From assembly GCA_965202665.1 (NCBI GenBank), contig OZ241841.1:1735367-1799366 (forward strand): a stretch of 64,000 nucleotides of DNA, in the 5' to 3' direction. The notes beneath the pieces were generated by a model that was not told the origin of the DNA, ran no database searches, and saw only the letters and a list, made by a program, of their open reading frames with translations. This document shows positions 4,022-44,397 of the stretch, in pieces; positions within the stretch are counted from its first letter, which is position 1; the number at the start of each line of letters is the position of its first letter. Source of the DNA: Candidatus Spongiisociaceae bacterium. GTDB lineage: Bacteria > Actinomycetota > Acidimicrobiia > Spongiisociales > Spongiisociaceae. Position numbers and translations under genes: made by a program.

Positions 4022-7000
4022 ATGAATGCTAAGGCTAACAGCAACCGGAACCACTCCTTCAAAGTAGGTGATTTCGTGCGATTGAAGGCCACAGGCGAGG
4101 TGGGGGTGGTTGTTGAGCTTATAGGAGACGACTTTGTAAAGGTCCAGTTCGCTGACGGCGCGAAGGTGGTAAATGCGGATGCTTTAGAACCCGCAGATAA
4201 GTCTCCAGTCGGCCCGGTCGGGTTGCTAGAAGGAGGCACACTCTCCGATAGTCGAGCTTTTGGTTTACGACTTCAGGCTGCTTACCTCCGACACGCTTAC
4301 CGATATGACCCTAAGTCTGGGCTGTCCAACGCCAGGGTGGAGCCCAAGCTACATCAAGTGTTCGCCGCCCATCGGGTAACCGGCAAGCTCTTTCCTCGGA
4401 TGATACTAGCTGATGAAGTTGGTTTAGGGAAAACTATAGAGGCTGGGCTCATTTTAAAAGAACTTCGGGCTCGCGAAGTCATTGATCGCGTTCTCGTGGT
4501 TTGCCCAGCCTCTTTGCAACGCCAGTGGCAATATGAGATGGAAACCAAATTCAATGAAGAGTTCGAAATATATAATAAAACCGCAGTTGATTTTCTCGGT
4601 AAGGACGGCAGTAATCCTTGGATGAAACGAAAGGGTGCCATAGCCTCCTATGAATTTGCCATCAAGCCAAGGAATATGGAACAAATTGTGGAAGCCGACT
4701 GGGATTTGATTATTTTTGATGAAGCACACCGGGTTAGAAGAACACGCGTCGGGAACAAATATAGAGAAACCAAGGCATACAAGATGGCTAAACTTCTACA
4801 AGATCGAGACTTTGGCTTATTATTGCTTACCGCTACTCCTATGCAATTACACCTATATGAGCTCTATTCCCTTATTGACTTGATTGATTCTAGCCTTCAT
4901 ATAGATTTTGCTGAATTTGAGGACAAGATGTTAGAAATACCTGATTTGAATGATGCGATGAAGGAACTACAAGAATGGCCGTCAGTTCATAAACATCAGA
5001 GGCTCAATGCCGTTGTACGTTGGGGTTTTAAAATGGGCTACTTGAGAAAAAAATCTGTTACCGATATTTTGAACGATGATGACAAGCGGGAGAAATTAAT
5101 TAACGACTTGGTCCAACGACATCCTGTGGCACAAGTTCTTATTCGCAATCGTAAGAGTACCATAGGTGGATTTAAAGGACGAATTGCCAATCGTATACCA
5201 GTAAAGTTAACAGATGAAGAATGGGAGTTGTATAATGAAATATCAGAATATATTCGGCTAGGTTATAACCGGGCTAACAAAGAGAAGAAGAGGGCGATTG
5301 GATTTACTATGACAATATATCAAAAACTCTTGACTAGTAGCTCGTACGCCCTCCGCGAAAGTTTCAGAAATCGGGTGACTAACCTAAAGAATCAAGATAA
5401 CGTAAGGCAAAAGGAAGCAATTACAGAAAATGGATTAAACGAATTACGTGAACTTGATGATATTTCTGAAGGATTAGATCATTTAGAACAGGACGACATA
5501 GATAATTCTGAACAGAAATCAGAAATACGGGAGCTAGAGGGATATATTGACCGCCTAAATCAGATAAGAGATTCGAAAGCGGACAAATTAATAAATGAAA
5601 TAGTATTGCCAATTCTGGATAAAAATTCCAGTGAGAAGATATTGATATTCACAGGTTTCGTCAATACACAGAAATTCCTGCAGAGAGTTCTTCAATCGAT
5701 TGGCTATGAGGTCACCATTTTCAATGGTCAGATGGACTTATCCGAGAAGGAGAAGTCGGTCCAGCGATTCAGACAACAAGCGCAGATTATGATTACAACA
5801 GAAGCAGGTGGCGAAGGTCGTAACTTTCAGTTTGCGCATATTATGGTAAACTATGATCTGCCGTGGAATCCGATGAAGGTTGAACAGCGGATCGGTCGTC
5901 TTGATCGAATTGGCCAAACTCGTAAAGTTCAGATATACAATCTTTATAGTGAGAGTACACTAGAACAGCGAATTTTAGATGTATTGGAATATCGTATTCA
6001 ACTCTTTACTCGGGCAGTAGGTTCATTGGATCCTATACTTGGCGAAGTAGAACGAGATTTAGAAAGAATTATTTTCGAGCATATGGACAATCTAGATGAG
6101 TATATGGAGAAATTCGAAAAAGATCTTGCGGAAAGAATCAAAGAAGCAAGGGAAACCGAAAAGTTATTGGGTGACTTTATTTTGGATCGTACTAGCTTGA
6201 GACAAGACGAGGCAAATATACTATTAGAACGATCTACGCTGGCTAGTTTTGATGACCTGCACCGATTTATTGAGGAAGCACTAAACTATTATGGAGGAAG
6301 ATTGAGTAAGCATAATAACGGAGGTGATTATTTAACATTGTCACCCAATCTAAGACACGATATTCAGGCTGACAGTACCAATGTTCGTGGAGTATTTGAT
6401 CCGAAGGAGGCACTGGAGTGGGAAGATTTAGATTTTTTCGCTTTCGGACACAAACATATTGACCGAATAGTAGACTATGTCTATAACCAAGATGCGAAGA
6501 CGGGGGTCCGTTTTTTACCAGATGCCCCCCCAGGAGTTACGATAGAGATAATATATGAGTACGAAAGTCGAAGACCCCTTCATACAAAGGGTCAAAGAGG
6601 ACCCTTTCATGCAAAAGGTCAAATGGTCCGACATCATATAGGACAAGACTTGCAAATCCATAGTGAAATGATTACAACCATACCTGCTGTGGGTCAGGCC
6701 TGTAACAGCAAAGTAGATGTACCAGAGTGGTTACCTAGTGCTTTGGAGATAAGCCAGCAGAGAGCTATCGAGGAATTGGAGCAGTTTCAAGAGAAGACAT
6801 ATAGGGAAGGATTACCAGAACGTAGAGGGATGGAAGAGCGTTACCGGCGGGTGTTTGCTCATCAGCGTAAACAGTTGAAAGCTAAGATAGAAAAAGCAAG
6901 GGCTTGGATAGATGAAAAAACACAAAGTGGCTCCGATGATGAAAAAAAGATTCTACCTGCCCAGCGAGCGAGGTTACGGCAAATGGAACAAGAACTTCAG

Positions 7001-7099
7001 AATCTAACCTCCGAGTTACAGCACAAAATTGAAGAATTGAATCGTCCGGCAGATATCATTCAGACGATTGTATCAGCAGGATTGGTAATGAGACAATGA
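4022..7099 (+). CDS. rapA: RapA/HepA-like SNF2-family ATPase (RNA polymerase-associated Swi2/Snf2 protein homolog) with N-terminal Tudor/KOW-like domain
   Basis: Motif I ILADEVGLGKTIEAGLIL, motif II IIFDEAHRV, motif III LLLTATPMQ and helicase-C EGRNFQFAHIMVNYDLPWNPMKVEQRIGRLDRIGQ closely resemble E. coli RapA. N-terminal KVGDFVRLKATGEVGVVVEL small beta-barrel. About 40% GC against a 70% flank. Confidence 0.8.
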   Translation: MNAKANSNRNHSFKVGDFVRLKATGEVGVVVELIGDDFVKVQFADGAKVVNADALEPADKSPVGPVGLLEGGTLSDSRAFGLRLQAAYLRHAYRYDPKSGLSNARVEPKLHQVFAAHRVTGKLFPRMILADEVGLGKTIEAGLILKELRAREVIDRVLVVCPASLQRQWQYEMETKFNEEFEIYNKTAVDFLGKDGSNPWMKRKGAIASYEFAIKPRNMEQIVEADWDLIIFDEAHRVRRTRVGNKYRETKAYKMAKLLQDRDFGLLLLTATPMQLHLYELYSLIDLIDSSLHIDFAEFEDKMLEIPDLNDAMKELQEWPSVHKHQRLNAVVRWGFKMGYLRKKSVTDILNDDDKREKLINDLVQRHPVAQVLIRNRKSTIGGFKGRIANRIPVKLTDEEWELYNEISEYIRLGYNRANKEKKRAIGFTMTIYQKLLTSSSYALRESFRNRVTNLKNQDNVRQKEAITENGLNELRELDDISEGLDHLEQDDIDNSEQKSEIRELEGYIDRLNQIRDSKADKLINEIVLPILDKNSSEKILIFTGFVNTQKFLQRVLQSIGYEVTIFNGQMDLSEKEKSVQRFRQQAQIMITTEAGGEGRNFQFAHIMVNYDLPWNPMKVEQRIGRLDRIGQTRKVQIYNLYSESTLEQRILDVLEYRIQLFTRAVGSLDPILGEVERDLERIIFEHMDNLDEYMEKFEKDLAERIKEARETEKLLGDFILDRTSLRQDEANILLERSTLASFDDLHRFIEEALNYYGGRLSKHNNGGDYLTLSPNLRHDIQADSTNVRGVFDPKEALEWEDLDFFAFGHKHIDRIVDYVYNQDAKTGVRFLPDAPPGVTIEIIYEYESRRPLHTKGQRGPFHAKGQMVRHHIGQDLQIHSEMITTIPAVGQACNSKVDVPEWLPSALEISQQRAIEELEQFQEKTYREGLPERRGMEERYRRVFAHQRKQLKAKIEKARAWIDEKTQSGSDDEKKILPAQRARLRQMEQELQNLTSELQHKIEELNRPADIIQTIVSAGLVMRQ

Positions 7100-8451
7100 G
7101 AAACGTACTTGCCTGTGGTATTGACTTTGGAACAACCAATAGCTCTGTATCGATCGCGTATGATAACGGCGATGTAGAGTTAGTTACTATTGACACTAGC
7201 ACGCCCATGCCCCGTAGCTTGTCATCCATTGCATATATAGATCGTGAAGATGCTAAGCAAGCAGGACAAGAAGCTGTTAAACAGTTTATGATTACCGGAC
7301 CTATTAGTACTTCTTGCGGTAATTGTGATTTAGTAGAGATAATCAAGTTTGGTGGTTTTGCACATTATGATACAGATTGTAAGCAACATCAGCCTGGGGG
7401 TAGGTGTCAGGACGCCCGTCTGGTTAGTGGAGTGAAAAGCTTACTAGCCCCCACTGAGAATGGTACTACCCATGCTTGGGCCAGGTATTTTGAATTGGAG
7501 GATTTTGTTGCGATCATAATAAAGGAGCTTAAGAAACGGGTTGATGATATAGCAGGTGCCAATATACGTAGAGTTGTTTTAGGATATCCAGTAACTTTCG
7601 TGGGTGCTGAAGGCTCAGATTATGAAAATCTACAGGAAGGGGCAGAGGGCAGACTACAACGAGCGGCAGAAAAGGCGGGGTTCACTGATATAGAATTATT
7701 TCCGGAACCAGCTGCTGTGTTGCTGGATCAATACTTGAAGGATGGATACATACTAGCGGTAGATTTTGGTGGTGGAACTTATGATGTGGCAGTCTTAGAG
7801 AACCAGGGAAGCGAGCCGGAGATCGTAGCACTTCAGGGTGCTACGATAGGTGGAGAAAAATTCGACGGTTTGTTGTTTGATAAAAAGGTGGCTGACGCTA
7901 TAGGTCTAAACCAGAAACCCAAAGGCAAAACTTTGCCCAAATGGATAAAGATTAATATGCGAACCTTGGCTGGCATCCCTATTTTACTCAAAAATCCGTT
8001 TCTTCTGTCCACCTTATTGAATTTTGAAAGTCTAGGAGCCAATATTGATGCCATTCGTGAGATTTTGTTTGGTGGTCATGCGTATAGTTTCTATACTGAA
8101 GTGGAGAGAGCTAAAATAGAATTATCCGAAAGCCAAGTAGCTCAGATTCGCTATCATGTGCAAGGCAGGATTGATGTATCAGCCACGGTATATCGGACTG
8201 ATTTCGATCGTTGGATAAGTTCATATCTTGACAGGGTTGATACCGCTACAATAACCGCCGTAAATGAGGCTGGTGTAGCACCTCAAGATGTCCATACCGT
8301 CTTACGAGCAGGAGGTTCATCAAAAATACCGCAATTTATTGACAGACTAGAATCTATATTTCCGAATGCGGAAATCAGGGAACGGGATGCGTTTACATCC
8401 GTGGCCTATGGCCTTGGTGTACATGCATTGGAGGTATGGGGTAATGTCTGA
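7096..8451 (+). CDS. Hsp70-family actin-fold ATPase, nucleotide-binding domain only (YegD-like), no substrate-binding domain
   Basis: Motifs GIDFGTTNSSV, VDFGGGTYDVAVLE and RAGGSSKIPQF match the Hsp70 NBD phosphate-1, phosphate-2 and adenosine motifs. The protein is 451 aa with no SBD. ATGA overlap with the helicase stop. Low GC. Confidence 0.75.
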   Translation: MRNVLACGIDFGTTNSSVSIAYDNGDVELVTIDTSTPMPRSLSSIAYIDREDAKQAGQEAVKQFMITGPISTSCGNCDLVEIIKFGGFAHYDTDCKQHQPGGRCQDARLVSGVKSLLAPTENGTTHAWARYFELEDFVAIIIKELKKRVDDIAGANIRRVVLGYPVTFVGAEGSDYENLQEGAEGRLQRAAEKAGFTDIELFPEPAAVLLDQYLKDGYILAVDFGGGTYDVAVLENQGSEPEIVALQGATIGGEKFDGLLFDKKVADAIGLNQKPKGKTLPKWIKINMRTLAGIPILLKNPFLLSTLLNFESLGANIDAIREILFGGHAYSFYTEVERAKIELSESQVAQIRYHVQGRIDVSATVYRTDFDRWISSYLDRVDTATITAVNEAGVAPQDVHTVLRAGGSSKIPQFIDRLESIFPNAEIRERDAFTSVAYGLGVHALEVWGNV

Positions 8452-9196
8452 TGACAAGCAAAAGCCTCGTGAGAGGATAAGGATTCCTACGCCCAAGGAG
8501 TTAGACGAGTCCGCTACCGGTGGACAGTCGGAACAGGATGAGCCTCAGGAGCAAAAGGGCGGTCGTGCCCGGTTCCGGCGGATCCGGATGCGGATGAGGG
8601 GAGGTGTGGGGCGGAACAAGAAAGTGCTAAAGGCTCCTCGACCTGATGTAGAGACAGTAGGGGAAGGTCCTCCGGATGGAAAAGACCCAGGAGATGTCGA
8701 GCCAGGTTTTATCGTCCCCTTATCTGAGCGGGTAATAGGGGATGAAGGTGGTCAGATACAAGAAGAGGCTGTTCTTCCGAGGCAGATACCGGGACGGATC
8801 CAGCCGTTCAAGGACGAGTTTAGCGAAGAGGATAAACAAGAGGATTCTTCTAGATCGCGTGTCCGTGCTGTCAAATTCTCACCTAAGATTAAGAAAAGGA
8901 AAGAGGAACCGGTTCCTGATGATGATGCAAAGAGGCCCAAGAGTCGTGAGGAGATAGCTCGGGATTTAGCTAGTCGTAATGCTCAAGAAAATGGTCATGA
9001 TATAGGTGACTTTTTCAAGCAGGTTCGCCCAGATCGCACTAAGCACTTTACAGCTACATGTAGAAAATGTGGTTTGGATATCATAGCTGTGGTGGAGCTT
9101 GATGATTATCAGGTAAAAGGACTTCCAGGAGTTATCGGGAAGGCTAAAAACAAAAGATGTACAGAAGAAGTTAAGAATAGAGGAGTCGGTCTTTAG
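8444..9196 (+). CDS. highly charged (K/R/E/D-rich) hypothetical protein with C-terminal Cys cluster (possible zinc ribbon)
   Basis: The start MSDDKQ at 8444 overlaps the Hsp70-like stop by 8 nt. About 250 aa of low-complexity charged sequence precede a C-terminal CRKCG...(26 aa)...C. Low GC. Last gene of the island. Confidence 0.5.
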   Translation: MSDDKQKPRERIRIPTPKELDESATGGQSEQDEPQEQKGGRARFRRIRMRMRGGVGRNKKVLKAPRPDVETVGEGPPDGKDPGDVEPGFIVPLSERVIGDEGGQIQEEAVLPRQIPGRIQPFKDEFSEEDKQEDSSRSRVRAVKFSPKIKKRKEEPVPDDDAKRPKSREEIARDLASRNAQENGHDIGDFFKQVRPDRTKHFTATCRKCGLDIIAVVELDDYQVKGLPGVIGKAKNKRCTEEVKNRGVGL

Positions 9197-14374: not shown

Positions 14375-15787
14375 ATGATTCCGGTTTTGACCGCCGGGCA
14401 GTCCCGCAGCCAAGATTCCGCGACGGCGGCGCCCCCGGAGATGTTGGTGGAACGGGCCGGGCGGGCGGCGGCTTTGGCGGCGGTGCGGCTGGGGGCCGGT
14501 TACGGGACGCGGACCGCGGTTCTGGCCGGGCCGGGCAACAACGGGGCGGACGGATACGTCGCGGCCGGGGTTTTGGCCCGCCGGGGGCTGTGGGTGGATG
14601 TTTACCCGTTTTTGGAACCGCGGAGCGCGGCGGCGGCACAGGCCGGGGAGCGGGCGGCGGCCGCCGGGGCGAAGTTTCGCCCCTGGGGGGTTTTCCGCCC
14701 CGCCGATACGGTGGTGGACGCCCTGTTCGGGGGCGGTTTCCGGGGGGAGGCGCCCGACCTGTCTTTCTGGCGGGCGGGGGGAGGGCGGCGGTTGGCGGTG
14801 GACGCCCCGTCCGGTTTGGATGTTTCCACCGGTTGCGCGGCGCCGGGGACTTTGCCCGCCGATGCGACCGTCACGTTCGGCGGCCTGCGGGTGGGGCATC
14901 TGATCGGGGACGGCCCCGGCCTGTGCGGGGAGGTTGCGGTGGCCGACATCGGGTTGGCGGAGGCGGAGCCGGAGTTTTGGCTGTGCGAGGAGGGGGACGC
15001 GCCTTTGCCGGCGCGGGAGCGGACGGCCCACAAGTGGTCGGCCGGTTCGGTGCTGGTGGTGGGCGGTTCGCGGGGTTTGGACGGGGCGGCCACTTTGACC
15101 GCTAGGGCCGCGTTGCGGGCCGGGGCGGGGGCGGTGATGATCGCCTGCCCGCCCGCGGTGGAGGAGAAGGTGCGGGCCCCGGAGATTATGACCCGGGCGG
15201 TGGGGCCGGGCCCTTTCCTGGGGGAGGGGTGCCTGCCGGAGGTTCTGGAGTTAGCGTCCCGGTTCGACGTGCTGGCCCTGGGTCCCGGCTTGGGTTTGGA
15301 TCCGTCGGCGGCCGGTTTCGCGGCCGGGCTGCTAAAGGAATGGGAGGGCCCGTTGCTGGTGGACGCCGACGGTTTGAACGTTTTGGACGGTCCGGCTTCG
15401 CTGCGGCGGACGGCCCCGACCGTCATCACCCCCCACGCCGGGGAGTTTCTAAGGCTGACCGGGACGGAGGCTGATTACCGGGCGGCGGCCGCTTTGGCGG
15501 AGAGCGCCGGGGCGGTGGTCCTGCTGAAAGGGTCCCCCACTTTCGTGATGGGGGAGGGCCGGTGGGCGGTGGCGGAAGGCGGCCCCGAGTTGGCCACTAT
15601 CGGATCCGGCGACATCCTGGCCGGAATGATCGCCGCTTTCTGGGCGGCTGGCCAAGACGCCGAAACCGCCGCCCGCTCCGCCGCCTTCTGGCACGCCCGT
15701 TCCGCCGCCGTTTTAGTCCAAACCCAAACCCCCACCGCCGACTCCCTGGTGAACCACCTACCCAAAGCTACCCGCCGCCCCACCTAG
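14375..15787 (+). CDS. nnr: bifunctional NAD(P)H-hydrate repair enzyme (YjeF-N epimerase + YjeF-C dehydratase)
   Basis: YjeF-N motif GPGNNGADGYVAA; YjeF-C motif HKWSAGSVLVVGGS...GDILAG. Confidence 0.85.
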   Translation: MIPVLTAGQSRSQDSATAAPPEMLVERAGRAAALAAVRLGAGYGTRTAVLAGPGNNGADGYVAAGVLARRGLWVDVYPFLEPRSAAAAQAGERAAAAGAKFRPWGVFRPADTVVDALFGGGFRGEAPDLSFWRAGGGRRLAVDAPSGLDVSTGCAAPGTLPADATVTFGGLRVGHLIGDGPGLCGEVAVADIGLAEAEPEFWLCEEGDAPLPARERTAHKWSAGSVLVVGGSRGLDGAATLTARAALRAGAGAVMIACPPAVEEKVRAPEIMTRAVGPGPFLGEGCLPEVLELASRFDVLALGPGLGLDPSAAGFAAGLLKEWEGPLLVDADGLNVLDGPASLRRTAPTVITPHAGEFLRLTGTEADYRAAAALAESAGAVVLLKGSPTFVMGEGRWAVAEGGPELATIGSGDILAGMIAAFWAAGQDAETAARSAAFWHARSAAVLVQTQTPTADSLVNHLPKATRRPT

Positions 15788-16387: not shown

Positions 16388-16648
16388 TTAGTCCTCCTCC
16401 GGGCGTAACGCCGCTAACCACGCCGCCTGCCATTCCGTCCAACTCCGTCGTTCGTCCGCCGTTATCGTCCGGAGGTTATACGCCGAATGTACGAGTATCT
16501 GAGCCCACTCCGCCCGGAATATTCGTTCCGCTGTCCGAGCGTCCGTCCTTTCCCGGAGTTTGGTCAAGAACCATCGCTCCAACGCCGCCACATAATCGGC
16601 ATCAGTCCGCGCCGCCGCCGCGGCGGACGGGTCGTGGCGGTTCGTCAT
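16388..16648 (-). CDS. hypothetical protein (86 aa)
   Basis: ORF with plausible composition; no recognizable motif. Confidence 0.3.
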   Translation of the reverse strand: MTNRHDPSAAAAARTDADYVAALERWFLTKLRERTDARTAERIFRAEWAQILVHSAYNLRTITADERRSWTEWQAAWLAALRPEED

Positions 16649-16880
16649 CCGCTACCCCCTCCGTCTGAACGGGTTGGCCTACTAACCAGGAACGAGCAGG
16701 CAGTGGCGGAACAGACCCTGCCGTGAAACATATGCCACAAGCAAAAAGGGGCCTCTGACCTGCGATTACGCCCAAATACAGCACCGCAAAGGCCTAACGG
16801 ATTGGACAACCCAGATCAGCCTGTGTATAATTTGGACTGCGACCGAACGGATACGGATTAGGGAAAGGCAGACACAGACA

Positions 16881-17357
16881 ATGATGGCAATGATGGGCAG
16901 AACGGTTTCCTGCTTGTTGTCCAGTGTTATGTTCTGGACTGCTCTGTCTGTTCCTGGTGGACAGGACGCTGATGATCTGCCTGCCTGCGGACACCCAGAA
17001 TGTTATCCAACATTTTGTCAGGTGTTTAACGATCCTGATAATGTCCATGATAAGTTAAAAATGTTGTCTAATGAACATAAAATACAGATTATCAGTTTCC
17101 TGATAAGTGTCCGTAAATATAGGGATAAACTAAAACGCTATCCAATACAAAACTTGGAAAATATTCTGTATGAAATATTACGACAGTCAGTTGACGCAAA
17201 TAGCATATCTGCTTATATCAGACAACAGAATATTGGAAATGACAAAGTAACAAAAATACTGTGGTATACTATAGACTTACCAGGTGTCAGGTTGTCTATA
17301 ATAGATAACCCAACGGCTGAACAACTGATAATATTAGATATAGATTTGGATAATTAA
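16881..17357 (+). CDS. hypothetical protein, low-GC (about 38%) gene with hydrophobic N-terminus
   Basis: Clean ORF in an AT-rich patch that contrasts with the genome. Possible signal peptide MMAMMGRTVSCLLSSVMFWTALSVPG. Confidence 0.4.
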   Translation: MMAMMGRTVSCLLSSVMFWTALSVPGGQDADDLPACGHPECYPTFCQVFNDPDNVHDKLKMLSNEHKIQIISFLISVRKYRDKLKRYPIQNLENILYEILRQSVDANSISAYIRQQNIGNDKVTKILWYTIDLPGVRLSIIDNPTAEQLIILDIDLDN

Positions 17358-17382
17358 AACAACAGAGCAGAGGAGGAAAACA

Positions 17383-17616
17383 ATGGAAGATAATCCGTCT
17401 GCCGCTAGCACTATGGCAGATAACATCTATCAGGCCATCCAGGAACAGGTCAGTCAGGCTCTGGATGATGTCCTGGATAGGGTTATCCGGGATGCGGGCA
17501 CTGATGTGGAAATCAGGGCCGCCCGTCCTGCTGATGAATGTCCTGCCTGCCACAGGACATTAGACCCGGAAACCAGCAGGTCTGTTCTGACCAGTCAGGC
17601 TGATAACGCTGCCTGA
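17383..17616 (+). CDS. small acidic hypothetical protein (paralogous N-terminus to ORFs at 49960-50184 and 50368-50700)
   Basis: Shares the N-terminal pattern M-A/T-D/E-N/Q...Q/A-rich with two small ORFs in the second CAGG/CCTG-rich locus. Confidence 0.35.
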   Translation: MEDNPSAASTMADNIYQAIQEQVSQALDDVLDRVIRDAGTDVEIRAARPADECPACHRTLDPETSRSVLTSQADNAA

Positions 17617-17797
17617 CATTCCAGAGCCTGGTCTATCCAAGCCTGATATGCAGAAATGCTGACCTGTGGTCAAGAGCCTGCTGAAATCCAATCGGACAGG
17701 CACAGGCCTGCGGGCAGTGTTTCCAGGATAGCCTGGTGCCTGTCCAGGTCTGACCATTCCCGAGCTGCCGTCGCAGGTCTGCCAGAGCCTGTTTCCT

Positions 17798-18005
17798 GCT
17801 GTTTTTGGGGTGGGGTCCTCCATTATGGTTTTGGTGGGGTTGGATAGGGTTGAGGTGGTAGGGGCGGAGGAGACGGGCCGGGCGGTTGACGGGGGCGGGG
17901 GCGGGCGGCGGCGTTGTGGGGGATGGGGGCTTTGGTGGGACTATAATGGGCGTTAAGGCGCCGGATTTGGCGACGGCGGTGTTATTCTGCCGTTTCAACC
18001 CTCGG
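17798..18005. mobile_element. ISL3-like element remnant (left-end region only)
   Basis: ttggggtggggtcctccat...ggttgaggt.g...ggcggaggagacgggcc matches 51028-51165, immediately upstream of the ISL3 transposase fragment. Copy 1 carries internal deletions. Confidence 0.35.
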
Positions 18006-18039
18006 GGTGACGGGGGCGGGCCGCAAGTACGGAGGAAGC

Positions 18040-20457
18040 ATGCGGGACCAGGCACAAGTTGTCATCGTCGGCGGCGGGGCCATGGGGGTGGGGTTGCTCT
18101 ACTTTTTGGCCCACGAAGGGTGGACGGATGTCCTGCTGGTGGAAAAAGACGAGCTGACCTCCGGTTCCACTTGGCACGCGGCGGGCCTCACCCCGCATTT
18201 CATCGGAGACCTCAACTATTCCAAGGTGCACCGCGACACCATCGACCTGTACAAGGTGATCGAAGAGGAAACCGGCCTGCATTCCGGATGGCACGGTTGC
18301 GGGGCGGTGCGTTTGGCCCGCACCCGGGACGAGTCGGACTGGTTTCACTACGTCAAAGGCATTTTGGACTACAACGGGGTGGAATGCCATCTGCTGAGCC
18401 CCCGGGAAGTCACCGAGGTGGCCCCCCTGCTGGATGTGGAACCCGATGTGACCCTCGGTTTCTGGACTCCGGGCGACGGCTGGACCGACCCGTCGGCCGC
18501 CGCCAACGCCATGGCCGCCGGGGCCCGCAATTTGGGGGCGGAGATCAGCCGCCGCAACCGGGTGACCGACATGAACCAGCTGCCCGACGGAACCTGGGAG
18601 GTGATCACCGAAAAAGGCCGGGTGACGGCCGAACATGTGGTGAACGCCGCCGGATCCTACACCCCGCAACTGGGGGCGATGGTCGGTTTGGAGGTCCCCA
18701 TGGAGTCGGTCATCCACCAATACCTGGTCACGGAACGGATTGCGGAGGTGGCCGCCTTGGACAAGGAGCATCCGGTGGTGCGCGACCCCCGCTCCTCCTG
18801 TTATTACCGGCAGGAGCACGACGGGCTGATCATCGGCCCCTATGAACGGGAGGGGGCCAAAGAATACGGAACGGAGGGCATCGACTGGGATCTGACTTTC
18901 CATCTCACCCCGGTGGAGTTGGAGCGCCTGTTGCCCTGGCTGGAGTTGGCCGCCGCGCGCCTGCCCTGTTTCGCCGGGGCGGGGGTCAAACAGGTGGTGT
19001 CCGGCCCGATCACCCACACCCCGGACGCCGGCTTCCTGCTGGGCCCCGCCCCCGGGTTGCGCAACTACTGGTACTGCGCGGGGGCTTCCATCGGCATAAC
19101 CCAGGGGCCGGGGGCGGGCAAATACCTGGCGCAGTGGATGGTGCACGGCCAGACCGAAATCAACGTGGGGGGAATGGATCCCCGCCGTTTCGGCCCCTAC
19201 GCCCCGGGCCGCTACACCCACGAACGTTCCATCGACGAGTTCCACGAGATGTACCAGGTGCGGATGCCCAACGAGTACCGCCCGGCCGGGCGGCCCATGA
19301 AAACCACCCCCCTCTACGACGTCTTAGATAGCAAAGGGGCGCAGTGGCAGGAGGTGTGGGGATGGGAGCGGGCCATGTATTTCGCCCCCGAACCGGAGCA
19401 GTATTCTTTCCGCCGTTCCTCCGCCCATGATTTTACGGGCCGGGAGATCCGGGCCGTCCGCCGCAACGTAGGGGTGGCCGACCTGACCGCCTTCTCCAAG
19501 TTTGAAGTCACCGGTCCGGATGCGGCCGCCCTGCTGGACCGCTTGGCGGCCAACCGGCTCCCGGCCCGGGACGGCGGAATGCGCCTGGTGCATATGCTGA
19601 CCGACTTGGGCGGCATAGAAGCCGAAATGACCATCACCCGCTTGGGCGAGCAAAGGTTTTACCTCAATTCGGGCATCACCGGCCAGTGGCACGACTTCGA
19701 CTGGCTGGTTTCCCACATCCGCCCCGGCGAGCAAGCCCAAGTCACGGACGTGACCGACCGGCGGGGGATTTTGGCGGTCACCGGCCCCCGTTCCCGCGTT
19801 CTTCTCCAAAAGCTCACCGCCGCCGACCTGTCCAACGAGGTCTTCCCGTGGCTGACCGGCCGGGAGATGGAGGTGGCGGGCGCCCCCTGCCTGGGGTTGC
19901 GGGTTTCCTATGTGGGGGAGTTGGGATGGGAGCTGCACCTTCCCCTGGAGAACCTGGCCGACGTGTATCAGGCGGTGCAGGAGGCGGGCGCCCCGCTGGG
20001 TCTGGTCGATTTCGGGAGCCGGGCGATGAACATCATGCGCTTGGAGAAGGGATATAAGGCTTTCGGGGCCGAGCTGACCACCGAAATCACCCCGGTGGAG
20101 GCCCGGCTGGGGCGGTTCGTGGATTACGACAAGGATTTTCTGGGCAAACAGGCGACCGTCGCCCGCCGCGACCAAGCCGAGCCGTTGGACATGGTGCTGG
20201 TGTACGCCGAATTGGACGCATCCGACGCCGACTGCCTGGGCAATGAACCGGCCTACGACGGGGAGAGGATCATGGGCGTCACCACCAGCGGGGCCTGGGC
20301 CCATTCGGTGGACCGCAGCATCCTGTTCGCCTACGTCGATCCCCGATTCGAATCCCCCGGTTCCGCTTTTCAGGTGGGGGTGATGGGCGAACGGAGGGAG
20401 GCGGCCGTGTTGGCCGAACCGGTCTGGGATCCGCAAAACCTGCGGATCAGGGGCTGA
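18040..20457 (+). CDS. dimethylglycine/sarcosine dehydrogenase-family flavoprotein (FAD DAO domain + GcvT-like folate-binding domain)
   Basis: Start at MRDQAQVVIVGGGAMGVG (RBS GGAGGAAG). The DAO fold is followed by an aminomethyltransferase-like C-terminal region (RLEKGYKAFGAELTTEITPVEARLGRFV). 805 aa. Confidence 0.85.
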   Translation: MRDQAQVVIVGGGAMGVGLLYFLAHEGWTDVLLVEKDELTSGSTWHAAGLTPHFIGDLNYSKVHRDTIDLYKVIEEETGLHSGWHGCGAVRLARTRDESDWFHYVKGILDYNGVECHLLSPREVTEVAPLLDVEPDVTLGFWTPGDGWTDPSAAANAMAAGARNLGAEISRRNRVTDMNQLPDGTWEVITEKGRVTAEHVVNAAGSYTPQLGAMVGLEVPMESVIHQYLVTERIAEVAALDKEHPVVRDPRSSCYYRQEHDGLIIGPYEREGAKEYGTEGIDWDLTFHLTPVELERLLPWLELAAARLPCFAGAGVKQVVSGPITHTPDAGFLLGPAPGLRNYWYCAGASIGITQGPGAGKYLAQWMVHGQTEINVGGMDPRRFGPYAPGRYTHERSIDEFHEMYQVRMPNEYRPAGRPMKTTPLYDVLDSKGAQWQEVWGWERAMYFAPEPEQYSFRRSSAHDFTGREIRAVRRNVGVADLTAFSKFEVTGPDAAALLDRLAANRLPARDGGMRLVHMLTDLGGIEAEMTITRLGEQRFYLNSGITGQWHDFDWLVSHIRPGEQAQVTDVTDRRGILAVTGPRSRVLLQKLTAADLSNEVFPWLTGREMEVAGAPCLGLRVSYVGELGWELHLPLENLADVYQAVQEAGAPLGLVDFGSRAMNIMRLEKGYKAFGAELTTEITPVEARLGRFVDYDKDFLGKQATVARRDQAEPLDMVLVYAELDASDADCLGNEPAYDGERIMGVTTSGAWAHSVDRSILFAYVDPRFESPGSAFQVGVMGERREAAVLAEPVWDPQNLRIRG

Positions 20458-20458: not shown

Positions 20459-22021
20459 ATGGCCGACCGCCGCCGCGCCGGGGGAAGGGCCGCCCGGATG
20501 GCCGCCCGGGCCGCCCCGCTGGCCGAAGAGGAACGCCCGGTTCGGCCCGGTTTGCCGGGCGGGGCTTTCAAGCCGCTGTCCGAATCCGACTGCCAACAGG
20601 TTTACGAGACGGCCCTGGTCCTGCTGGAGGAGGTGGGGGTGGCGGACCCGGTCCCCGAATTCATGGAAGCGGTCACCGGGGCGGGCGGATGGATGGACGA
20701 AGGGGGGCGGCTCCGCTACCCGCGGGGGGTGGTGGAAAAGGTCATCACCGAAACAGCCGCCCGGAGCTGGGTGTGGCACGGCTTGGACGAAGACCGCAGC
20801 ATAGAGGTTGGCGGCGACAAGGTCCATTTCGGCACTTCGGGGGCGGCCGTTTTGATGCTGGATTACGAAAACCGCTCTTTCCGCCCCACCACCACCGCCG
20901 ATTTGTACGACGCCGCCCGATTGGTGGACGTTTTGGAGCACATCCATTTTTTCGTCCGCACCGTGGTGACCAGGGATCTGGAAACCCCCCGGGAGGTGGA
21001 TCTGAACACGGCCTACGCGGTGATGATGGGCACTTCCAAACCGCAGGGCGTCTCTTTTTTCAAACCGGAGAACGTCTACGAGGCGGTGGCGATGTACGAC
21101 CACGTTTTAGGAGGGGAGGGGGAGTTTCGCCGCCGCCCGTTCGTCGCCGCCAACAACACCTTCGTGGTGCCGCCGTTGCGTTTCGCTTACGAGTCCACCG
21201 AATGCATGGTGGCCCAGATCGACGCCGGGATGCCCGTCAAACTGCTTTCCGCCGGGCAGGCGGGGGCCACTTCCCCGGCGGCCTTGGCCGGTTCGCTGGC
21301 GCAGGCCTTGGCCGAATGCCTGGCCGGCCTGACCAGCGTCAACCTGCTTTCCCCCGGTCATCCCTGCTCGTTGGACATGTGGCCGTTCGTGTCCGATCTG
21401 CGCACCGGGGCGATGAGCGGCGGGTCGGGGGAGGAGGCGGTGATGACCGCCGCCGCCGCCCAAATGGTGAACTGGCTGGATCTGCCGTCCGGGGTGGCGG
21501 CGGGGATGGCCGACTCCAAACTTCCCGACGGCCAGGCCGGATACGAGAAGGGGATCACCACCGTCCTGGCCGGGCAGGCGGGGGCCAATTTGATCAACGA
21601 GTCGGCGGGGATGCTGGGTTCCCTGCTGGTGTTTTCCCTGGAGTCGCTGGCGGTGGACAACGACATGCTGGGGGCGGCCAACCGCACCATCCGCGGCGTG
21701 GAAGTCAACCCGGATTCCCTGTCTTTGGAAACCATCAAAGAGGCCATCTTCGGCCCCGGCCATTTCCTGGGTTCCGAGCAGACCCTGCGCCTGATGCAAC
21801 GCGACTACGTGTACCCGCAGGTGGGGGATCGCAACAGCCCCGACGATTGGCGGGATCAGGGGGCGACCAACGTGGCGGAACGGGCGGGGGAGTACGTGCG
21901 CAAAGTGATGCGCACCCATTTCCCCGCCCACATCAGCCGGGAGCAGGACGCTTGGATTAGGGAGCGGATGCCCATCGCCCTGCCCGCGGACGAGGTGGTC
22001 GGCCTCGGAACCCGCTGGTAA
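20459..22021 (+). CDS. MttB-superfamily (non-pyrrolysine) methyltransferase, glycine betaine/trimethylamine:corrinoid methyltransferase-like
   Basis: About 500 aa. N-terminal LSESDCQQVYETALVLLEEVGV fits the MttB TIM-barrel family. No in-frame amber codon. Immediately downstream of the DMGDH-like gene, 1-nt gap. Confidence 0.65.
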   Translation: MADRRRAGGRAARMAARAAPLAEEERPVRPGLPGGAFKPLSESDCQQVYETALVLLEEVGVADPVPEFMEAVTGAGGWMDEGGRLRYPRGVVEKVITETAARSWVWHGLDEDRSIEVGGDKVHFGTSGAAVLMLDYENRSFRPTTTADLYDAARLVDVLEHIHFFVRTVVTRDLETPREVDLNTAYAVMMGTSKPQGVSFFKPENVYEAVAMYDHVLGGEGEFRRRPFVAANNTFVVPPLRFAYESTECMVAQIDAGMPVKLLSAGQAGATSPAALAGSLAQALAECLAGLTSVNLLSPGHPCSLDMWPFVSDLRTGAMSGGSGEEAVMTAAAAQMVNWLDLPSGVAAGMADSKLPDGQAGYEKGITTVLAGQAGANLINESAGMLGSLLVFSLESLAVDNDMLGAANRTIRGVEVNPDSLSLETIKEAIFGPGHFLGSEQTLRLMQRDYVYPQVGDRNSPDDWRDQGATNVAERAGEYVRKVMRTHFPAHISREQDAWIRERMPIALPADEVVGLGTRW

Positions 22022-28578: not shown

Positions 28579-29565
28579 TTACGTCTCGGCGGCCTCGGAG
28601 TCGTCGTCTTCCGACCCCGCTTTTTCGTGTTCGAAGCCATCATAGTCCGGTTTGGTTTTTATGTGTCCGGAACCGTCGTCGTCCGACTTCATCTCTTCGT
28701 ACTGGGCGAACAGTTCGGTGATGGAGTCGGCCTGTTCCCGGGTGATGACCTCGTCTTCCACCATGTCCGCCAGCATTTCCGCCGGGTTTTTGAAACTTTC
28801 CGCCAAGTCGGTTCCCTGTTCCATAATCCAGGCGGTGATGGCCGGGAGTTGCCCTTCGGAGATGATCCCTTCCGCCGCCAGCTTGCCGAACAGCGTGTCC
28901 CCGCCCCGTCGGTGATGCTTGCCTTTTTCCTTCTCTTCGTATTGGGCGAGCAGTTCGGTGATGGAGTCGGCCTGTTCCCGGGTGATGACCTCGTCTTCCA
29001 CCATGTCCGCCAGCAACCCGGCCGGGTCTTCCAGCCCTTTCAGGGCGGCGGACTCCGTCTCCAGCCAGTCCAAGATGGCCGGAATCTGTTCTTGGGAGAT
29101 GAGTCCTTTCTCCGCCAGTTTCCCCAGTTCCCGCTCGGCTTCGGCTTCCATCCGGGCGGCGAGGGCGTCCGCCTGTTCCCGGGTCATCACCCCGTCGGCC
29201 ACTAATGCGTCCAGCAGTTCAGCCGGGGAATCATAGGAGGTGTTCCAGTCGGGCCCTTGGTCGGCGAACCAGTCTTTGACGGCCGACATCTGTTCCCGGG
29301 CCGCCCCGCCTTTCTTAACGAACCCCCACCGTTGGAACCCGGAGTCCCGCAGGCGATGACGGTCGCCCGCCTCATCGCCTTCATCATCGGCGTCGCCCTC
29401 ATCGCCTTCATCGTTGTCAGCGGCGACTACCGCCGCGCCGAATACGGCGGTGGCCGCAGTCCGGGCGCCGTCGCCGTCGCGGTCGCCGCTGCGGGCCACT
29501 GCCACCACCGCAAACAGGGCGATCACGGTCAGCAGGCCGACCGCCATAGTCAACATCTTTTTCAT
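28579..29565 (-). CDS. secreted/membrane-anchored acidic repeat protein (three ~70-aa internal repeats)
   Basis: Start probably at MKKMLTMAVGLLTVIALFAV (RBS AGGAAAA). Repeats LLADMVEDEVITREQADSITEL...ISEGQLPAI. A near-exact ~240-nt duplication (28700-28940 vs 28939-29179) is visible on the ORF track. Confidence 0.55.
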   Translation of the reverse strand: MKKMLTMAVGLLTVIALFAVVAVARSGDRDGDGARTAATAVFGAAVVAADNDEGDEGDADDEGDEAGDRHRLRDSGFQRWGFVKKGGAAREQMSAVKDWFADQGPDWNTSYDSPAELLDALVADGVMTREQADALAARMEAEAERELGKLAEKGLISQEQIPAILDWLETESAALKGLEDPAGLLADMVEDEVITREQADSITELLAQYEEKEKGKHHRRGGDTLFGKLAAEGIISEGQLPAITAWIMEQGTDLAESFKNPAEMLADMVEDEVITREQADSITELFAQYEEMKSDDDGSGHIKTKPDYDGFEHEKAGSEDDDSEAAET

Positions 29566-29734
29566 TCCGGTTTTCCTTTCCATCGCGCCGATCGAATTCC
29601 GATCGTGCGCCCAGCATCCTTCCCCAACCTTTTAATAATCTGAAAGGAATCTAAGAATAATCTAAGAAAAACCATACGCCGCCCACAGGCAACCCCCGCC
29701 GGGGTTAATTAGGAGAAGGCGGTAGGATGCGGAC

Positions 29735-32593: not shown

Positions 32594-35308
32594 TCAGGAG
32601 GACGGGGTTGCGTCTCCGCCCGCATCCGCATCCGGATCGGGGGAGTCCGGGGAGCGGGGGGCGGCGGGGGGAACCGGGGCGAAGTAGCCGACTACCAGCA
32701 ACAGCGCCCCCACCCCCAGGAAGGACACCACCCTGGTCAGGGCCCCGGTGTTGCCCAGGTCGATCAGGAAAAGTTTGACCACCACCACCCCCATCAGGGA
32801 CGCCCCGGCGATCCAGCCCGCCCGCTGCGCCTTCCACTTGCCGAAGATCATCCCCCCCAGCCCGGCCAGGCCCCACAGGATGGACAGGGCGGCCTGCAAG
32901 ATGGTGGAGCCGAACAGATCCCCGAAGGTGAACGGCGCCTCCCGCCAGTGGTGGACGGTGCGGGCCGCGGTCATGGTCAGCACGATCATCCCCATGGCGG
33001 CGGTCCATCCCAGCCAGTTCCGCCGCACCGCGGACAGGGCCGGGCCTTGATAGCGGCCGGTGCGTTTCCGCCACCAGAAGGCCGCCGCAACCAGCAACAC
33101 GCTCACCGCCTCCAAAGGATTAAGCAACGGAAGATAGGGCCACGGGGCGGGGTCGCCGTCCGAGAAAATATTGAGAACCACCGCCGCTACGGCCAGCCCG
33201 GCCAGTATCGCGCCCGACCCGGAAGCGAGGTAGATGCGCCGGCGGATCCCCAACGGCCAACCGTTTTCCCCGGCGCCGAGCAGGGGAAGGGCCGCCACCG
33301 CCAGCGCCGCCGCCAAAGAGGCCGCCGCCGGCCAGACGCCGCCGCCCGCCCGCCCGGCCAGCCAGTGAACCTCCGCCCCGATCAGCAACGCCAACCCCCA
33401 AAACCCGCCGCTGTGCAAAACGGCGAGCAATTTGGGAAACATTTCTTCCCGCAGCCGCAGGAACAGGTAGAGCGCCCCGAAGGCCAACGGCCAAGCCGCC
33501 CATCCGTAATCGTCCAACGGGTGGGAAAGATCAAATTCGCCCCCGCTCCGCACCGCCAAAGCCAGGAAGAGGAATATCGCTATCAAAGGAAGGAGCAGGG
33601 TTCCCAGAACGTTCAATTTGGGCCAGCGCACCGCCGGTGCCGCCAGGAATCCGGCCCCCAGCGCCGCGGCGACCACAGCCATCGAACCGTACAGTTCGGC
33701 GGAGCCCAGTTGGTTGACCGCTTCCATGACCAGGCCCCCCAGCAGCCAACCCGCGCCCCAGGACATTCCCAGCCAAGCCGCCTGCGACGCGGTTTCCGAT
33801 CGGTGGCGCCCCCGGTCCAGCAACCAGGCCGAGAACAGCCCGGCGGCGGCCAGCAACAGGGCCCCCGGCAGGTAGCGGTTGGCTACCGGGAGGGCGCCGT
33901 CCGGGTAGGGGAGTTGGCCGGCGAGGAACCACGCAAAAGAAATCCCGGCCAGGATTTGCAAGGCCCCTCCCCCCGCCGCCAGCCAGAACCGGTTGCGGCG
34001 CAGGTTGAGCCACACCATCGCCGCCCCCTGCGCCGCCCACGCCGCGGCCGTGTAATAGGCGTCGAAAGCCAGCGGGACGGCCAAGGCCAGAAAAACCGCG
34101 CCCAAACCGAGGTTGGATTCGCCCAGCGGACGGAGGTTCCGGCGGGGCGAGCGGGCGATCCGCCACAGCAGAAAGCAGAAGGCGGCCAGGCCCAGGGAGC
34201 TCCACGCCGGCCCGTAAGCGATGTGCCCCGCCAGCTGGTTCTGCAAGGCGAAGAAAACAAACGGGGTGCCGAAGGTCAAAGGCCCGTCGCTTATCCAGCG
34301 GCGGAAGGGGCCGTTTTCCGGACGGCGGGCGAGCAGCAGGGGGGCGGCCATGTAGGCGGCGGCGAACAGGGCGGGGAAGGGCCAAGCGGAGGCCAGCTGG
34401 TCGACCGTGTAGCGGAACAATATCCAATGGGCGCTGATCCCGAACGTGAACGCCCAACCCAGCAGGTTGAGCTCCGGCCACGTTTTGAACCAGGCGACGA
34501 ACAGGATGGCCAAGTTGAGGGCCGACAGGAAGCCGAACAGGATCAGGTGGGAGCCGTCGTCCGCCGAAATCAGGACGGGGGCCAGGAAACCGCCGATGAT
34601 GCCCAGCGTCGCCAACGAGCGGGAGTTTTGGACGATGGCCAGAACCCCCGCCGCGGCGGTGACGACCGCCACCGAAGCGAAGGCCGGCGGAGCCGCCAGA
34701 ACCTCATAGAGGACCAGCGAGGCGTACACGGCCAGGTACAGGACGGCCACGCCGCCTCCCTGCAGGCTGAGGGCGTAAACCAGGTTGCGGCCCCGCACCC
34801 ATAACCCGATGGCCAACATGGCCAGGCCGCACGCCGCCACTACCGCCAGCCGCATTTCCAGGGTGAGTGTGATCCATCCCCGGTTCAGGGCCGTCTGGAT
34901 CAGAAACCCCAGCCCGAGCAAGGACAGGATCACCCCCACCTTCACCGGAACGTTGCCGGTGGTGAACCATCTTTTGACCGCTCCCGCCGCCCGGCCGAAG
35001 GGAGACGGACCCGAGGCGCGCGGCGGAGGCGGTGGTGGTGGTGGCGGGGTCTTCGGCTCCGCCGGGGCCGCGGCCGGGACGGGGTCGGGTTCCCGAGGCG
35101 GCGGCGCGGGCGGAGGCTCCGCAACTTCCGGTTCCGGCGACGGCGGGGCGGCCGGGGTAGGGTAGGGGGGAGCAGGCCGGCCGGATTCCAAATGTTCCAC
35201 CCGACGGCGCAGGTTGGCCGTTTGGACCAACAGCACCACCAAGAGAACCGGCCCCGCAACCAGCACGATGAACAACAGAAAAGCCAGCAAACCTATCATC
35301 CCGGGCAC
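32594..35308 (-). CDS. large polytopic membrane protein (DUF2339-like) with Pro-rich N-terminal region
   Basis: 904 aa. N-terminal TM segment and coiled segment, a PPPPPPP-rich linker, then more than 20 predicted TM helices. Upstream of the two-component system on the same strand. Confidence 0.55.
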   Translation of the reverse strand: MPGMIGLLAFLLFIVLVAGPVLLVVLLVQTANLRRRVEHLESGRPAPPYPTPAAPPSPEPEVAEPPPAPPPREPDPVPAAAPAEPKTPPPPPPPPPRASGPSPFGRAAGAVKRWFTTGNVPVKVGVILSLLGLGFLIQTALNRGWITLTLEMRLAVVAACGLAMLAIGLWVRGRNLVYALSLQGGGVAVLYLAVYASLVLYEVLAAPPAFASVAVVTAAAGVLAIVQNSRSLATLGIIGGFLAPVLISADDGSHLILFGFLSALNLAILFVAWFKTWPELNLLGWAFTFGISAHWILFRYTVDQLASAWPFPALFAAAYMAAPLLLARRPENGPFRRWISDGPLTFGTPFVFFALQNQLAGHIAYGPAWSSLGLAAFCFLLWRIARSPRRNLRPLGESNLGLGAVFLALAVPLAFDAYYTAAAWAAQGAAMVWLNLRRNRFWLAAGGGALQILAGISFAWFLAGQLPYPDGALPVANRYLPGALLLAAAGLFSAWLLDRGRHRSETASQAAWLGMSWGAGWLLGGLVMEAVNQLGSAELYGSMAVVAAALGAGFLAAPAVRWPKLNVLGTLLLPLIAIFLFLALAVRSGGEFDLSHPLDDYGWAAWPLAFGALYLFLRLREEMFPKLLAVLHSGGFWGLALLIGAEVHWLAGRAGGGVWPAAASLAAALAVAALPLLGAGENGWPLGIRRRIYLASGSGAILAGLAVAAVVLNIFSDGDPAPWPYLPLLNPLEAVSVLLVAAAFWWRKRTGRYQGPALSAVRRNWLGWTAAMGMIVLTMTAARTVHHWREAPFTFGDLFGSTILQAALSILWGLAGLGGMIFGKWKAQRAGWIAGASLMGVVVVKLFLIDLGNTGALTRVVSFLGVGALLLVVGYFAPVPPAAPRSPDSPDPDADAGGDATPSS

Positions 35309-37629: not shown

Positions 37630-37636
37630 GCTGCTA

Positions 37637-40660: not shown

Positions 40661-40749
40661 ATCGCGTGTTGAGGCGTAGGCCCCGGTATTGCCCTCCGGT
40701 AGCCAGCGTGTTAGGCAAACGAAAAATGGGCTTGGAAGGAGTAGTCGTG

Positions 40750-44389: not shown

Positions 44390-44397
44390 GTTAAAGC

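Follow-up and report, generated by a model that had tools for sequence, protein, structure and literature searches.

Why does a genome whose ordinary stretches contain 67% GC carry, at three places within 64 kb, short patches of DNA that consist largely of CAG and CTG triplets? The stretch examined here (hereafter the window) is the whole 64-kb piece of contig OZ241841.1 from a Candidatus Spongiisociaceae bacterium, and the patches lie at 16794-17810 (A), 49210-50975 (B) and 59735-59900 (C), making up 2.9 kb together. We found that they share an aberrant composition, have lost nearly all short palindromes, correspond to parts of fuller islands in related contigs, and are being eroded differently in closely related strains. 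They are probably, though far from certainly, the eroded remnants of a rare, lineage-restricted family of foreign islands shaped by restriction avoidance.

An initial annotation of this DNA, made from its letters alone, had described the three segments as alien to the surrounding genome and dense in a few words, and both descriptions were borne out. The GC content is 0.46 in A, 0.50 in B and 0.55 in C, compared with 0.63 for the whole window; when the AT-rich open reading frames (ORFs) of A and B are left out, the remaining CWG-rich parts have a GC content of 0.50-0.56. In these parts the CpG odds fall to 0.06-0.59 (background 1.0) and the TpG/CpA odds rise to 1.45-1.73, while the trinucleotide CWG (CAG/CTG) occurs in the patches at 3-4 times expectation and is the signal underlying their CAGG/CCTG density. 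Across the whole window, CWG odds above 3 (200-nt windows) were confined to the three patches, and a CAGG+CCTG scan in 300-nt windows (cutoff, mean plus 2.5 standard deviations) returned outliers at 17301-17900, 49101-51100 and 59601-60100, plus a marginal one at 34501-34800. The 3-mer spectra of the patch parts A3, B3, B5 and C correlated with one another at 0.82-0.96, and that of A5 (16794-16960) correlated less closely with the other parts (0.60-0.72); the maximum reached in the background was 0.35 (297 windows of 400 nt). As for the words themselves, 8 copies of CAGGCCTG lie inside the patches as against 2 in the remaining 61 kb of the window (83-fold per kb), and CTGGTCAG/CTGACCAG, GACAGG/CCTGTC and CCWGG are 34-fold, 7-fold and 2.8-fold denser inside the three segments than outside. 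The AT-rich ORFs of A and B had been put at 33-38% GC but measure 36.7% and 42.5%; because their CpG is not depleted (odds 0.70 and 0.97), they form a compositional class separate from the CWG-rich DNA. Within the latter, the frequency of CWG differs neither between the strands nor between coding and non-coding parts; its spacing has a 3-nt (codon) period and a peak at CWG-N2-CWG, and helical phasing was not found. Neither structured RNAs (Rfam at gathering thresholds) nor tRNAs were detected in the patches.

Further word statistics were obtained on pooled sets, which comprise the window patches and the homologous DNA of related contigs (described below) and amount to 7.6, 9.7 or 11.8 kb depending on the test. 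In 7.6 kb of pooled CWG-rich DNA, CWG stands at 3.5 times expectation, CG at 0.32 and TA at 0.50; the triplets CCC/GGG (0.38), AAG/CTT (0.27) and GAG/CTC (0.37) are depleted, and 13 of the 16 four-base palindromes lie at or below 0.41. This loss persisted in the 9.7-kb set against a maximum-order Markov expectation, in which the trinucleotide bias is already absorbed: CATG was observed once against 44.6 expected (ratio 0.02), TGCA 3 times against 75 (0.04), AGCT 5 times against 34.4 (0.15), GATC 10 times against 50.8 (0.20) and ACGT twice against 11.6 (0.17), and the ratios for GCWGC and ACWGT were 0.09 and 0.21. Short palindromes are thus under-represented in the manner of restriction-site avoidance, whereas host DNA, with an overall four-base palindrome ratio of 0.75, shows a mild shortage only. 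A composition-matched internal control in 11.8 kb gave 110 copies of CAGCAG+CTGCTG versus 2 of CAGCTG+CTGCAG (17 versus 0 in the window patches only). Unrelated CWG-rich contigs from JGI metagenomes, by comparison, show no such avoidance (there are 73 TGCA and 38 CAGCTG or CTGCAG in L170, for instance), indicating that it does not follow automatically from CWG richness.

GGCC (ratio 1.02) is the single palindrome class spared in the island DNA. The palindromic octamer CAGGCCTG has 39 copies in 11.8 kb of island DNA versus none in 34.9 kb of host DNA; base composition predicts about 0.24 and CAGG × CCTG about 7.6, so that the excess is about 165-fold and about 5-fold, respectively. In being hyper-abundant relative to composition it resembles HIP1 (GCGATCGC), the highly iterated palindrome of cyanobacteria (PMC5861425, PMC4390886): it recurs about once per 300 nt, in coding and non-coding DNA, and stands in otherwise palindrome-poor sequence. 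HIP1, however, is spread over the genome, whereas the octamer is restricted to a few kb of island sequence and its frequency is explained by lower-order (7-mer) statistics. No cognate methyltransferase was identified; by analogy with the methylase link of HIP1 (PMC4390886, PMC5861425), a GGCC- or AGGCCT-type methylase could, as one possibility, account for the spared octamer.

Might the dense words themselves be functional, as Dcm-type CCWGG methylation targets or as repeated protein-binding sites, both of which the initial annotation had offered? CCWGG is commoner in the patches than in the host, as it would be at Dcm or very-short-patch repair sites, but at 0.89 of the maximum-order Markov expectation it has no excess beyond its context; its density follows from CWG richness, no dcm-like gene or other cytosine methyltransferase was seen among the window ORFs scanned (a partial set), and an array of Dcm targets was rejected. 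Binding sites find some support in the octamer, the only palindrome spared, and in a 17-nt leader core, CYNTGACCTGSNNTTAY, which occurs three times in the related contig L005 and once in each window leader (0.06 expected by chance). The other words offer none: no word of 6-8 nt stands out beyond the tri- and tetranucleotide bias under the maximum-order Markov model, and the evenness of CWG between strands and between coding and non-coding DNA does not point to sites either. We therefore regard functional iterated sites as a rather unlikely source of the word density.

Related DNA was obtained by exact-protein look-ups, which assigned the window to the metagenome series PANK22-1 and led to contigs (designated L001 and so on) with many strain variants. 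The most complete islands in them measure 3-5 kb (longest sampled, 5.2 kb). Contig L005, which begins with the end of an IS481 insertion sequence (IS), has an island of about 5 kb that is rich in CWG and poor in CpG throughout, with an AT-rich gene as its sole interruption. This island contains in order g1 (114 amino acids, aa), g2 (174 aa), g3 (225 aa), g4 (about 75 aa), a leader of 130-160 nt, a cargo gene for a 218-aa secreted SLH-domain protein and a post-cargo segment, beyond which lies further CWG-rich DNA. The islands of relatives occupy different loci, and their presence or absence varies: in L004 and L006 the island begins directly after an MFS transporter gene, in L040 the island, about 3 kb long, has host DNA on one side and a Fic gene on the other, and in L038 a one-gene patch of about 650 nt is set between host genes. 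The first gene at the left island boundary is g1 in both L004 and L038. Homologues of g1 at 38-41% identity (L037, L038/L039 and L040) still reside in DNA that is rich in CWG, poor in CpG and sharply set off from the host sequence, which suggests that the composition is a maintained property. The family is thinly populated. For g1 (ORF110 of patch B), three near homologues were found in 5.8 billion proteins and two distant ones in an exhaustive profile search of 1.8 billion representatives; for g3, the longest island protein, only itself and one variant were found, and all relatives of g1 and g3 come from one metagenome sample series.

Table 1 Features of the three CWG-rich patches and their immediate borders in the window.
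Feature	Coordinates	Strand	Remarks
Patch A leader/promoter module	16665-16880	+	16702-16830 homologous to patch B leader
ORF158	16881-17357	+	AT-rich gene, 36.7% GC, CpG not depleted
ORF77	17383-17616	+	Small acidic ORFan in CWG-rich DNA
Patch A CWG-rich non-coding tail	17617-17805		Highest CAGG/CCTG density of the window
ISL3 left-end remnant	17800-17900	+	Internally deleted (about 100 nt); without terminal inverted repeat
IS481-family (rve) transposase fragment	48706-49210	-	Left junction of patch B
CWG-rich post-cargo segment of B	49210-49420	-	CpG odds 0.06; weak homology to segment C
ORF163	49421-49912	-	AT-rich cargo; N-terminally truncated copy of a small secreted SLH-family gene
g2 remnant	49833-49949	-	First 31 codons of island gene g2 (MSDQQN...)
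ORF74	49960-50184	-	g4 homologue; 65-68% identical to L005 1696-1948
ORF110	50368-50700	-	Island gene g1
Patch B leader and CWG-rich upstream DNA	50703-50976	-	Leader 50703-50860, core motif 50794-50810; ends at ISL3 terminus
ISL3 left end	50977-51690	+	GGCTCTTCG...; truncated transposase N-terminus 51183-51557
Segment C	59735-59900	+	166-nt CWG-rich fragment with three CAGGCCTG sites

All three window patches map onto the island type of L005 and L040 (Table 1), and the likeness among the loci that had been proposed earlier is real beyond composition: A and B share a leader over 130 nt, and segment C is homologous to the post-cargo segments of L005 (3005-3125) and L040 (2894-3015), with the core CTGGACACTAGGGAAA. 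Patch A, whose true left edge lies at about 16665-16700 and not at 16794, consists of a leader followed by ORF158 and ORF77, and its right side is trimmed at the ISL3 remnant. Its leader contains the core motif CTCTGACCTGCGATTAC at 16753-16769 and a promoter-like TGGACA-17-TATAAT at 16803-16831 (11 of 12 positions match). The N-terminus of ORF158 is hydrophobic and resembles a signal peptide; the protein has no family match and no relative in other islands. The identical ORF77 protein was found on 11 independent contigs. Locus A, flanked by a YjeF-family gene (14375-15787) and a dimethylglycine-oxidase-like gene (18007-20457), keeps its position in at least six assemblies made independently from strains that are 93-99% identical, with the same flanks in L025-L032. 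In two of these strains (L026 and L030), 16427-16958 and 17129-17355 have been lost, so that ORF158 is partly deleted.

Patch B reads, on the minus strand, leader, g1, a 40-nt scrap of the g2/g3 junction, g4, the start of g2, the truncated cargo and the post-cargo segment. It is 96-99.8% identical to L008, and its g1 is about 91% identical to that of L005. The 5' end of ORF163 reads through the frame-shifted remnant of g2. In strains L001 and L002 a different deletion joins about 75 g2 codons to the last 49 cargo codons, and the IS481 junction lies at 49395 instead of 49210. The patch is trimmed at its left end by the IS481 fragment and ends on the other side exactly at the terminal repeat at 50977 of an element that we take to belong to ISL3, as its terminal repeat and zinc-finger/helix-turn-helix N-terminus resemble what is generally known of that family. 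Both A and B had been said to abut an ISL3-like left end. For B this is correct, with a real left end and a truncated transposase, whereas at A there is only the internally deleted sequence of about 100 nt.

Segment C lies 3' of a low-GC DUF6036 nucleotidyltransferase gene (58956-59720), and in strain L001, which is 97% identical, unrelated sequence with an IS fragment takes its place. Directly upstream of C, this gene forms a low-GC pair at 58327-59720 (+) with the gene of a 246-aa ORFan; the match of its nucleotidyltransferase-like protein to DUF6036 (E 3e-4) falls just under the Pfam cutoff. The pair together with segment C mirrors the island layout of an AT-rich gene followed by a post-cargo CWG segment.

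The homology map bears directly on the interpretation first given to these patches, namely that they are fragments of one foreign element, such as a phage, an integrative and conjugative element or a plasmid, which IS rearrangement within this genome scattered over three loci. Part of this stands: the DNA is of a foreign type, A, B and C belong to one island type, debris of IS481 and ISL3 flanks A and B, and these two patches are mutually inverted. A single element and dispersal by IS agree less well with the data. The leader is the only DNA that A and B have in common, in inverted orientation, and its two copies are only 78% identical, whereas the identities of B to L008 and of its g1 to L005 are much higher. 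ORF158 and ORF77 have no counterpart in B, L005, L040, L037 or any other island, locus A is syntenic across the strains described above, and the islands of relatives stand at yet other loci. Moreover, the ISL3 remnants at A and B are in direct orientation, which predicts deletion and not inversion, and the IS fragments on the two sides of B come from different families, so that the arrangement is not that of an IS composite or of IS-IS recombination. Taken together, dispersal of a single element within this genome appears unlikely.

We then examined what the islands encode. Judged from their sequence, the CWG-rich ORFs look coding: G makes up 0.27-0.44 of codon position 1 and 0.07-0.18 of position 2, and indels between homologues of island genes are in frame, with dN/dS (the ratio of nonsynonymous to synonymous substitution rates) of 0.44-0.9 indicating weak constraint. 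CAG (Gln) and CTG (Leu) are frequent in frame, and the GC content of third codon positions (GC3) is 0.49-0.65 in a host of 67% GC. The AlphaFold model of g1 (predicted local distance difference test score, pLDDT, 73) contains four long helices that would most simply pack as a bundle, and that of the cargo has helices over the SLH region and a confident beta-rich C-terminal domain; neither model had a significant neighbour in the PDB. Searches of Pfam, NCBIfam, PHROGs and PADLOC were empty save for SLH on the L005 cargo homologue and one weak g3 match considered below.

The small acidic ORFs of A and B had been taken for paralogues, but in pairwise BLASTP comparisons of ORF77, ORF74 and ORF110 (E 0.055, 1.6 and 0.27) homology was not detectable, and they share only a short M-x-[ED]-Q-N start. 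Several non-homologous island genes begin with M-[TAS]-[ED]-Q-N behind an initiation region of the GGAGCAGAAC type, and this shared start and initiation region are probably what was read as related N-termini. A translation-start cassette of the form ...GGAGCAGAAC(A)ATGAC(R)GAGCAGAAC... (M-T-E-Q-N) recurs in non-homologous genes of L038 (4395-4410), L037 (410-425 and 770-800) and the window (50700-50715, minus strand), and could be a recombination module junction or a shared signal.

The cargo belongs to an SLH family of at least 46 members (46-79% identity), some of which are not in islands: L034 and L036 (tandem pairs) and L041 (a single gene) carry chromosomal SLH genes of about 43-53% GC, which follow topA or arsP-type genes and are surrounded by ordinary host sequence, with no CWG flanks. 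ORF163 matches the L005 cargo (E 2e-29, 37% identity), but it is closer to the chromosomal copies in L034 and L036 (44-47%) than to the cargo of other islands (36-37%), suggesting that the islands acquired and exchange members of a host-lineage surface-protein family.

These results can be brought together in the reading of the patches as remnants of foreign islands shaped by restriction avoidance. The DNA would have lived as a mobile element exposed to many restriction-modification (R-M) systems, and restriction-site avoidance would have depleted CpG and TpA, discouraged certain G/C triplets and eliminated nearly all short palindromes of Type II kind, leaving a sequence largely of CAG and CTG. 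A complete island would comprise the co-oriented genes g1-g4, which encode small, helical, Gln-rich ORFans and have overlapping stops and starts, together with at least one copy of the promoter-leader (130-160 nt). This leader would drive an AT-rich cargo borrowed from the host-lineage family of small secreted, SLH-anchored, predicted beta-sandwich proteins, and a conserved post-cargo segment would come next. The regime was presumably maintained outside the chromosome and would not be that of a fading import, given that the signature is kept at 38-41% identity, that GC3 stays at 0.49-0.65 in a 67% GC host, and that the loci differ. In this genome, progressive erosion by deletions and by IS481 and ISL3 activity would have followed.

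Restriction-site avoidance was already the subject of work by Sharp (1986) and Rocha et al. (2001). Phages with double-stranded and single-stranded DNA are documented to use the elimination of orthodox Type II sites as a strategy (Rusinov et al. 2018, PMC6286503), and the patches resemble such DNA in that several Type II-type palindromes of 4-6 bp are nearly eliminated relative to a Markov expectation. They differ from it in being integrated and fragmentary, and in that at least six palindrome classes have been purged together along with a global depletion of CpG and TpA. Avoidance this extreme and at so many sites at once is unusual, as is a HIP-like palindrome within otherwise palindrome-free DNA. 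In kind, the patches are familiar, namely foreign island remnants with a restriction-avoidance signature, of which they are a very rare new example. They also share features with genomic islets and the 'moron' cassettes of phages, such as sharp compositional edges, variable presence among close strains, a link with IS elements, and a promoter-leader with a cargo of different GC; however, no integrase, tRNA target or direct repeats were found, and it is the vehicle DNA that is exotic here, the AT-rich cargo being of a host-lineage family.

Several points weigh against this reading. Strong avoidance is found mainly in virulent phages and is weaker in temperate ones (PMC6286503), which makes extreme avoidance in integrated DNA unusual. 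None of the sampled islands, which reach 5.2 kb, contains an integrase, transposase, replication or virion gene, and searches of Pfam, PHROGs and NCBIfam with the proteins of the window and of the L005, L037 and L040 islands revealed none of the phage hallmarks (integrase, terminase, portal, capsid, tail). A phage is hinted at solely by the weak match of g3 to a PHROG tail fibre (E 9e-5, 22.6 bits), which could be coiled-coil bias. Inspection by eye made no att site, direct repeat, terminal inverted repeat or target duplication evident at the island edges, and no tyrosine recombinase of the kind found in integrons was seen among the ORFs scanned. Nor was a reservoir genome found in the phage, plasmid, IMG/VR or JGI collections. 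The phage and plasmid comparison suggested by the initial annotation gave no match in either collection (blastn in distant mode against 50,697 phage records; 72,556 plasmid records), and the ORFs scanned had no relaxase, type IV secretion or replication domains. A 19-nt leader pattern matched genome contigs 16 times, singly, in unrelated genomes and at about chance frequency, with no match in IMG/VR, and scans of IMG/VR and JGI metagenomes for triple CAGGCCTG yielded unrelated repeats and DNA of probable eukaryotic origin, in which neither palindrome avoidance nor homology was seen. Finally, we infer the link from avoided words to actual enzymes, and palindrome avoidance alone explains neither the filling with CAG/CTG nor the enrichment of CAGGCCTG. 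A phage is our most likely specific guess for the origin, and it remains a guess.

In a different proposal, the islets of this uncultured high-GC lineage would be mobile or recombining DNA of a kind so far unrecognised, very small (0.2-5 kb) and spreading without a known recombinase. Their extreme vocabulary, saturated with CAG/CTG, devoid of CpG and palindromes and including the HIP-like CAGGCCTG, would then not be a passive restriction scar but itself functional, either as a decoy for host defences or because a dedicated system of modification, uptake or recombination acts on it. We consider this quite unlikely.

It was also considered whether the patches could be native, fast-evolving accessory genes, whose composition is a by-product of Gln/Leu/Ala-rich helical proteins and relaxed selection. 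The restriction of the family to one lineage and sample series, the lack of mobility genes, the weak constraint and the in-frame CAG and CTG codons would all suit such genes. However, the signature extends to non-coding DNA (17617-17805, 49210-49420, segment C and L005 3000-4200) and to all three codon frames, the GC3 values show no amelioration towards the host, the islands vary in presence and locus among relatives, and amino-acid composition cannot explain the loss of palindromes. This origin is accordingly judged distinctly improbable.

Still less can be said for host high-GC DNA lowered by CpG-targeted deamination, either in the manner of repeat-induced point mutation (RIP) in fungi or through deamination of 5-methylcytosine, with CCG/CGG turning into CTG/CAG. 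The CpG deficit, the TpG/CpA excess and the lowered GC are the footprint expected of these processes, and simulated conversion of CpG to TpG/CpA in host DNA raised the 4-mer correlation from 0.07 to about 0.6. The simulation, however, reached at most 0.081 CWG per nt versus 0.116 observed, and predicted abundant CCCA/TGGG, GGGG and CACC, all of which are strongly depleted in the patches. CATG, TGCA, AGCT and GATC are not removable by deamination, codon-position bias and in-frame indels are retained in the ORFs, and a purine/pyrimidine-collapsed alignment to about 190 kb of host DNA found no progenitor above shuffled controls. On the misfit of the simulation and the lack of a progenitor, a deamination origin was rejected as very improbable. 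An assembly chimera or contamination, conceivable for a metagenome assembly, has a next to negligible chance, as the same junctions between patch and host recur in independent assemblies, samples and pipelines (A in L003 and L025-L033; B in L001, L002 and L008).

The surroundings of the patches have features of their own. DUF222/HNH and SLH proteins, together with the 67% GC, suggest that the host belongs to the Actinomycetota. Beside locus A, the MttB-family ORF 20459-22021, which adjoins the dimethylglycine-oxidase-like gene, contains a match to the Rfam family PYLIS_3, the pyrrolysine insertion sequence of mttB, at 21506-21605 (+; 60.9 bits, gathering threshold 38), and is either a pyrrolysine-using MttB or a non-pyrrolysine homologue. 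Near patch B, about 460 nt of the 3' end of selB and an adjacent ISL3-like left-end motif are duplicated (44407-44865 and 51690-52147, 89-90% identity), and G-rich motifs resembling ISL3 ends recur at 44392, 50975 and 51676; these observations point to repeated IS-associated rearrangement in the region. The same region contains a perfect inverted repeat of 1635 nt (40798-42432 and 46934-48568; 100%) and a 99% repeat (38676-39630 and 41478-42432). These long repeats lie within two to three giant SLH/FG-GAP surface-protein genes (40633-44328, +; 45026-48565, -; 37359-39833, -), which suggests that S-layer-type paralogues, with IS481 copies interspersed, have very recently undergone gene conversion or duplication.

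Downstream of segment C, an Eco57I-like Type IIG gene is the only R-M gene recognised near the patches; the sites of Type IIG enzymes are usually not avoided (PMC6286503). It appears split into two overlapping ORFs, 60278-62110 (-) and 61981-63195 (-), of 610 and 404 aa, and its counterpart in L001 is a single gene of 966 aa, so that the window may hold a frameshifted or phase-variable copy. A larger low-GC island at 4022-9196 (+) is unrelated in composition to the CWG-rich patches (38-45% GC, normal CpG). Among its products are an SNF2 helicase of 1025 aa that matches the BrxHI/DrmD defence profiles (E 3e-108), a 451-aa Hsp70-like ATPase and an ORFan of 276 aa, and it is a candidate defence operon. 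Elsewhere, inside ORF 28579-29583, three copies of a 99-nt repeat occur at 28692-29231 (-) with a spacing of 201-240 nt, 93% and 65% identical to the reference copy.

What can be learned from these patches? In most respects they are ordinary genome archaeology, decayed island remnants with ORFan genes. If the reading as foreign islands shaped by restriction avoidance is true, however, they would be traces of a mobile element not yet seen, probably a virus, whose host is an uncultured high-GC bacterium and which was under Type II restriction pressure heavy enough to lose CpG and at least six palindrome classes together. This would lead to testable predictions on the R-M repertoire and the methylome of the community. 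It would also provide a k-mer fingerprint (CWG odds above 2.5, CpG below 0.5, no CATG or TGCA) for retrieving the missing element from the same metagenomes, and CAGGCCTG, spared and hyper-abundant, would offer a small, tractable analogue of the HIP1 puzzle.

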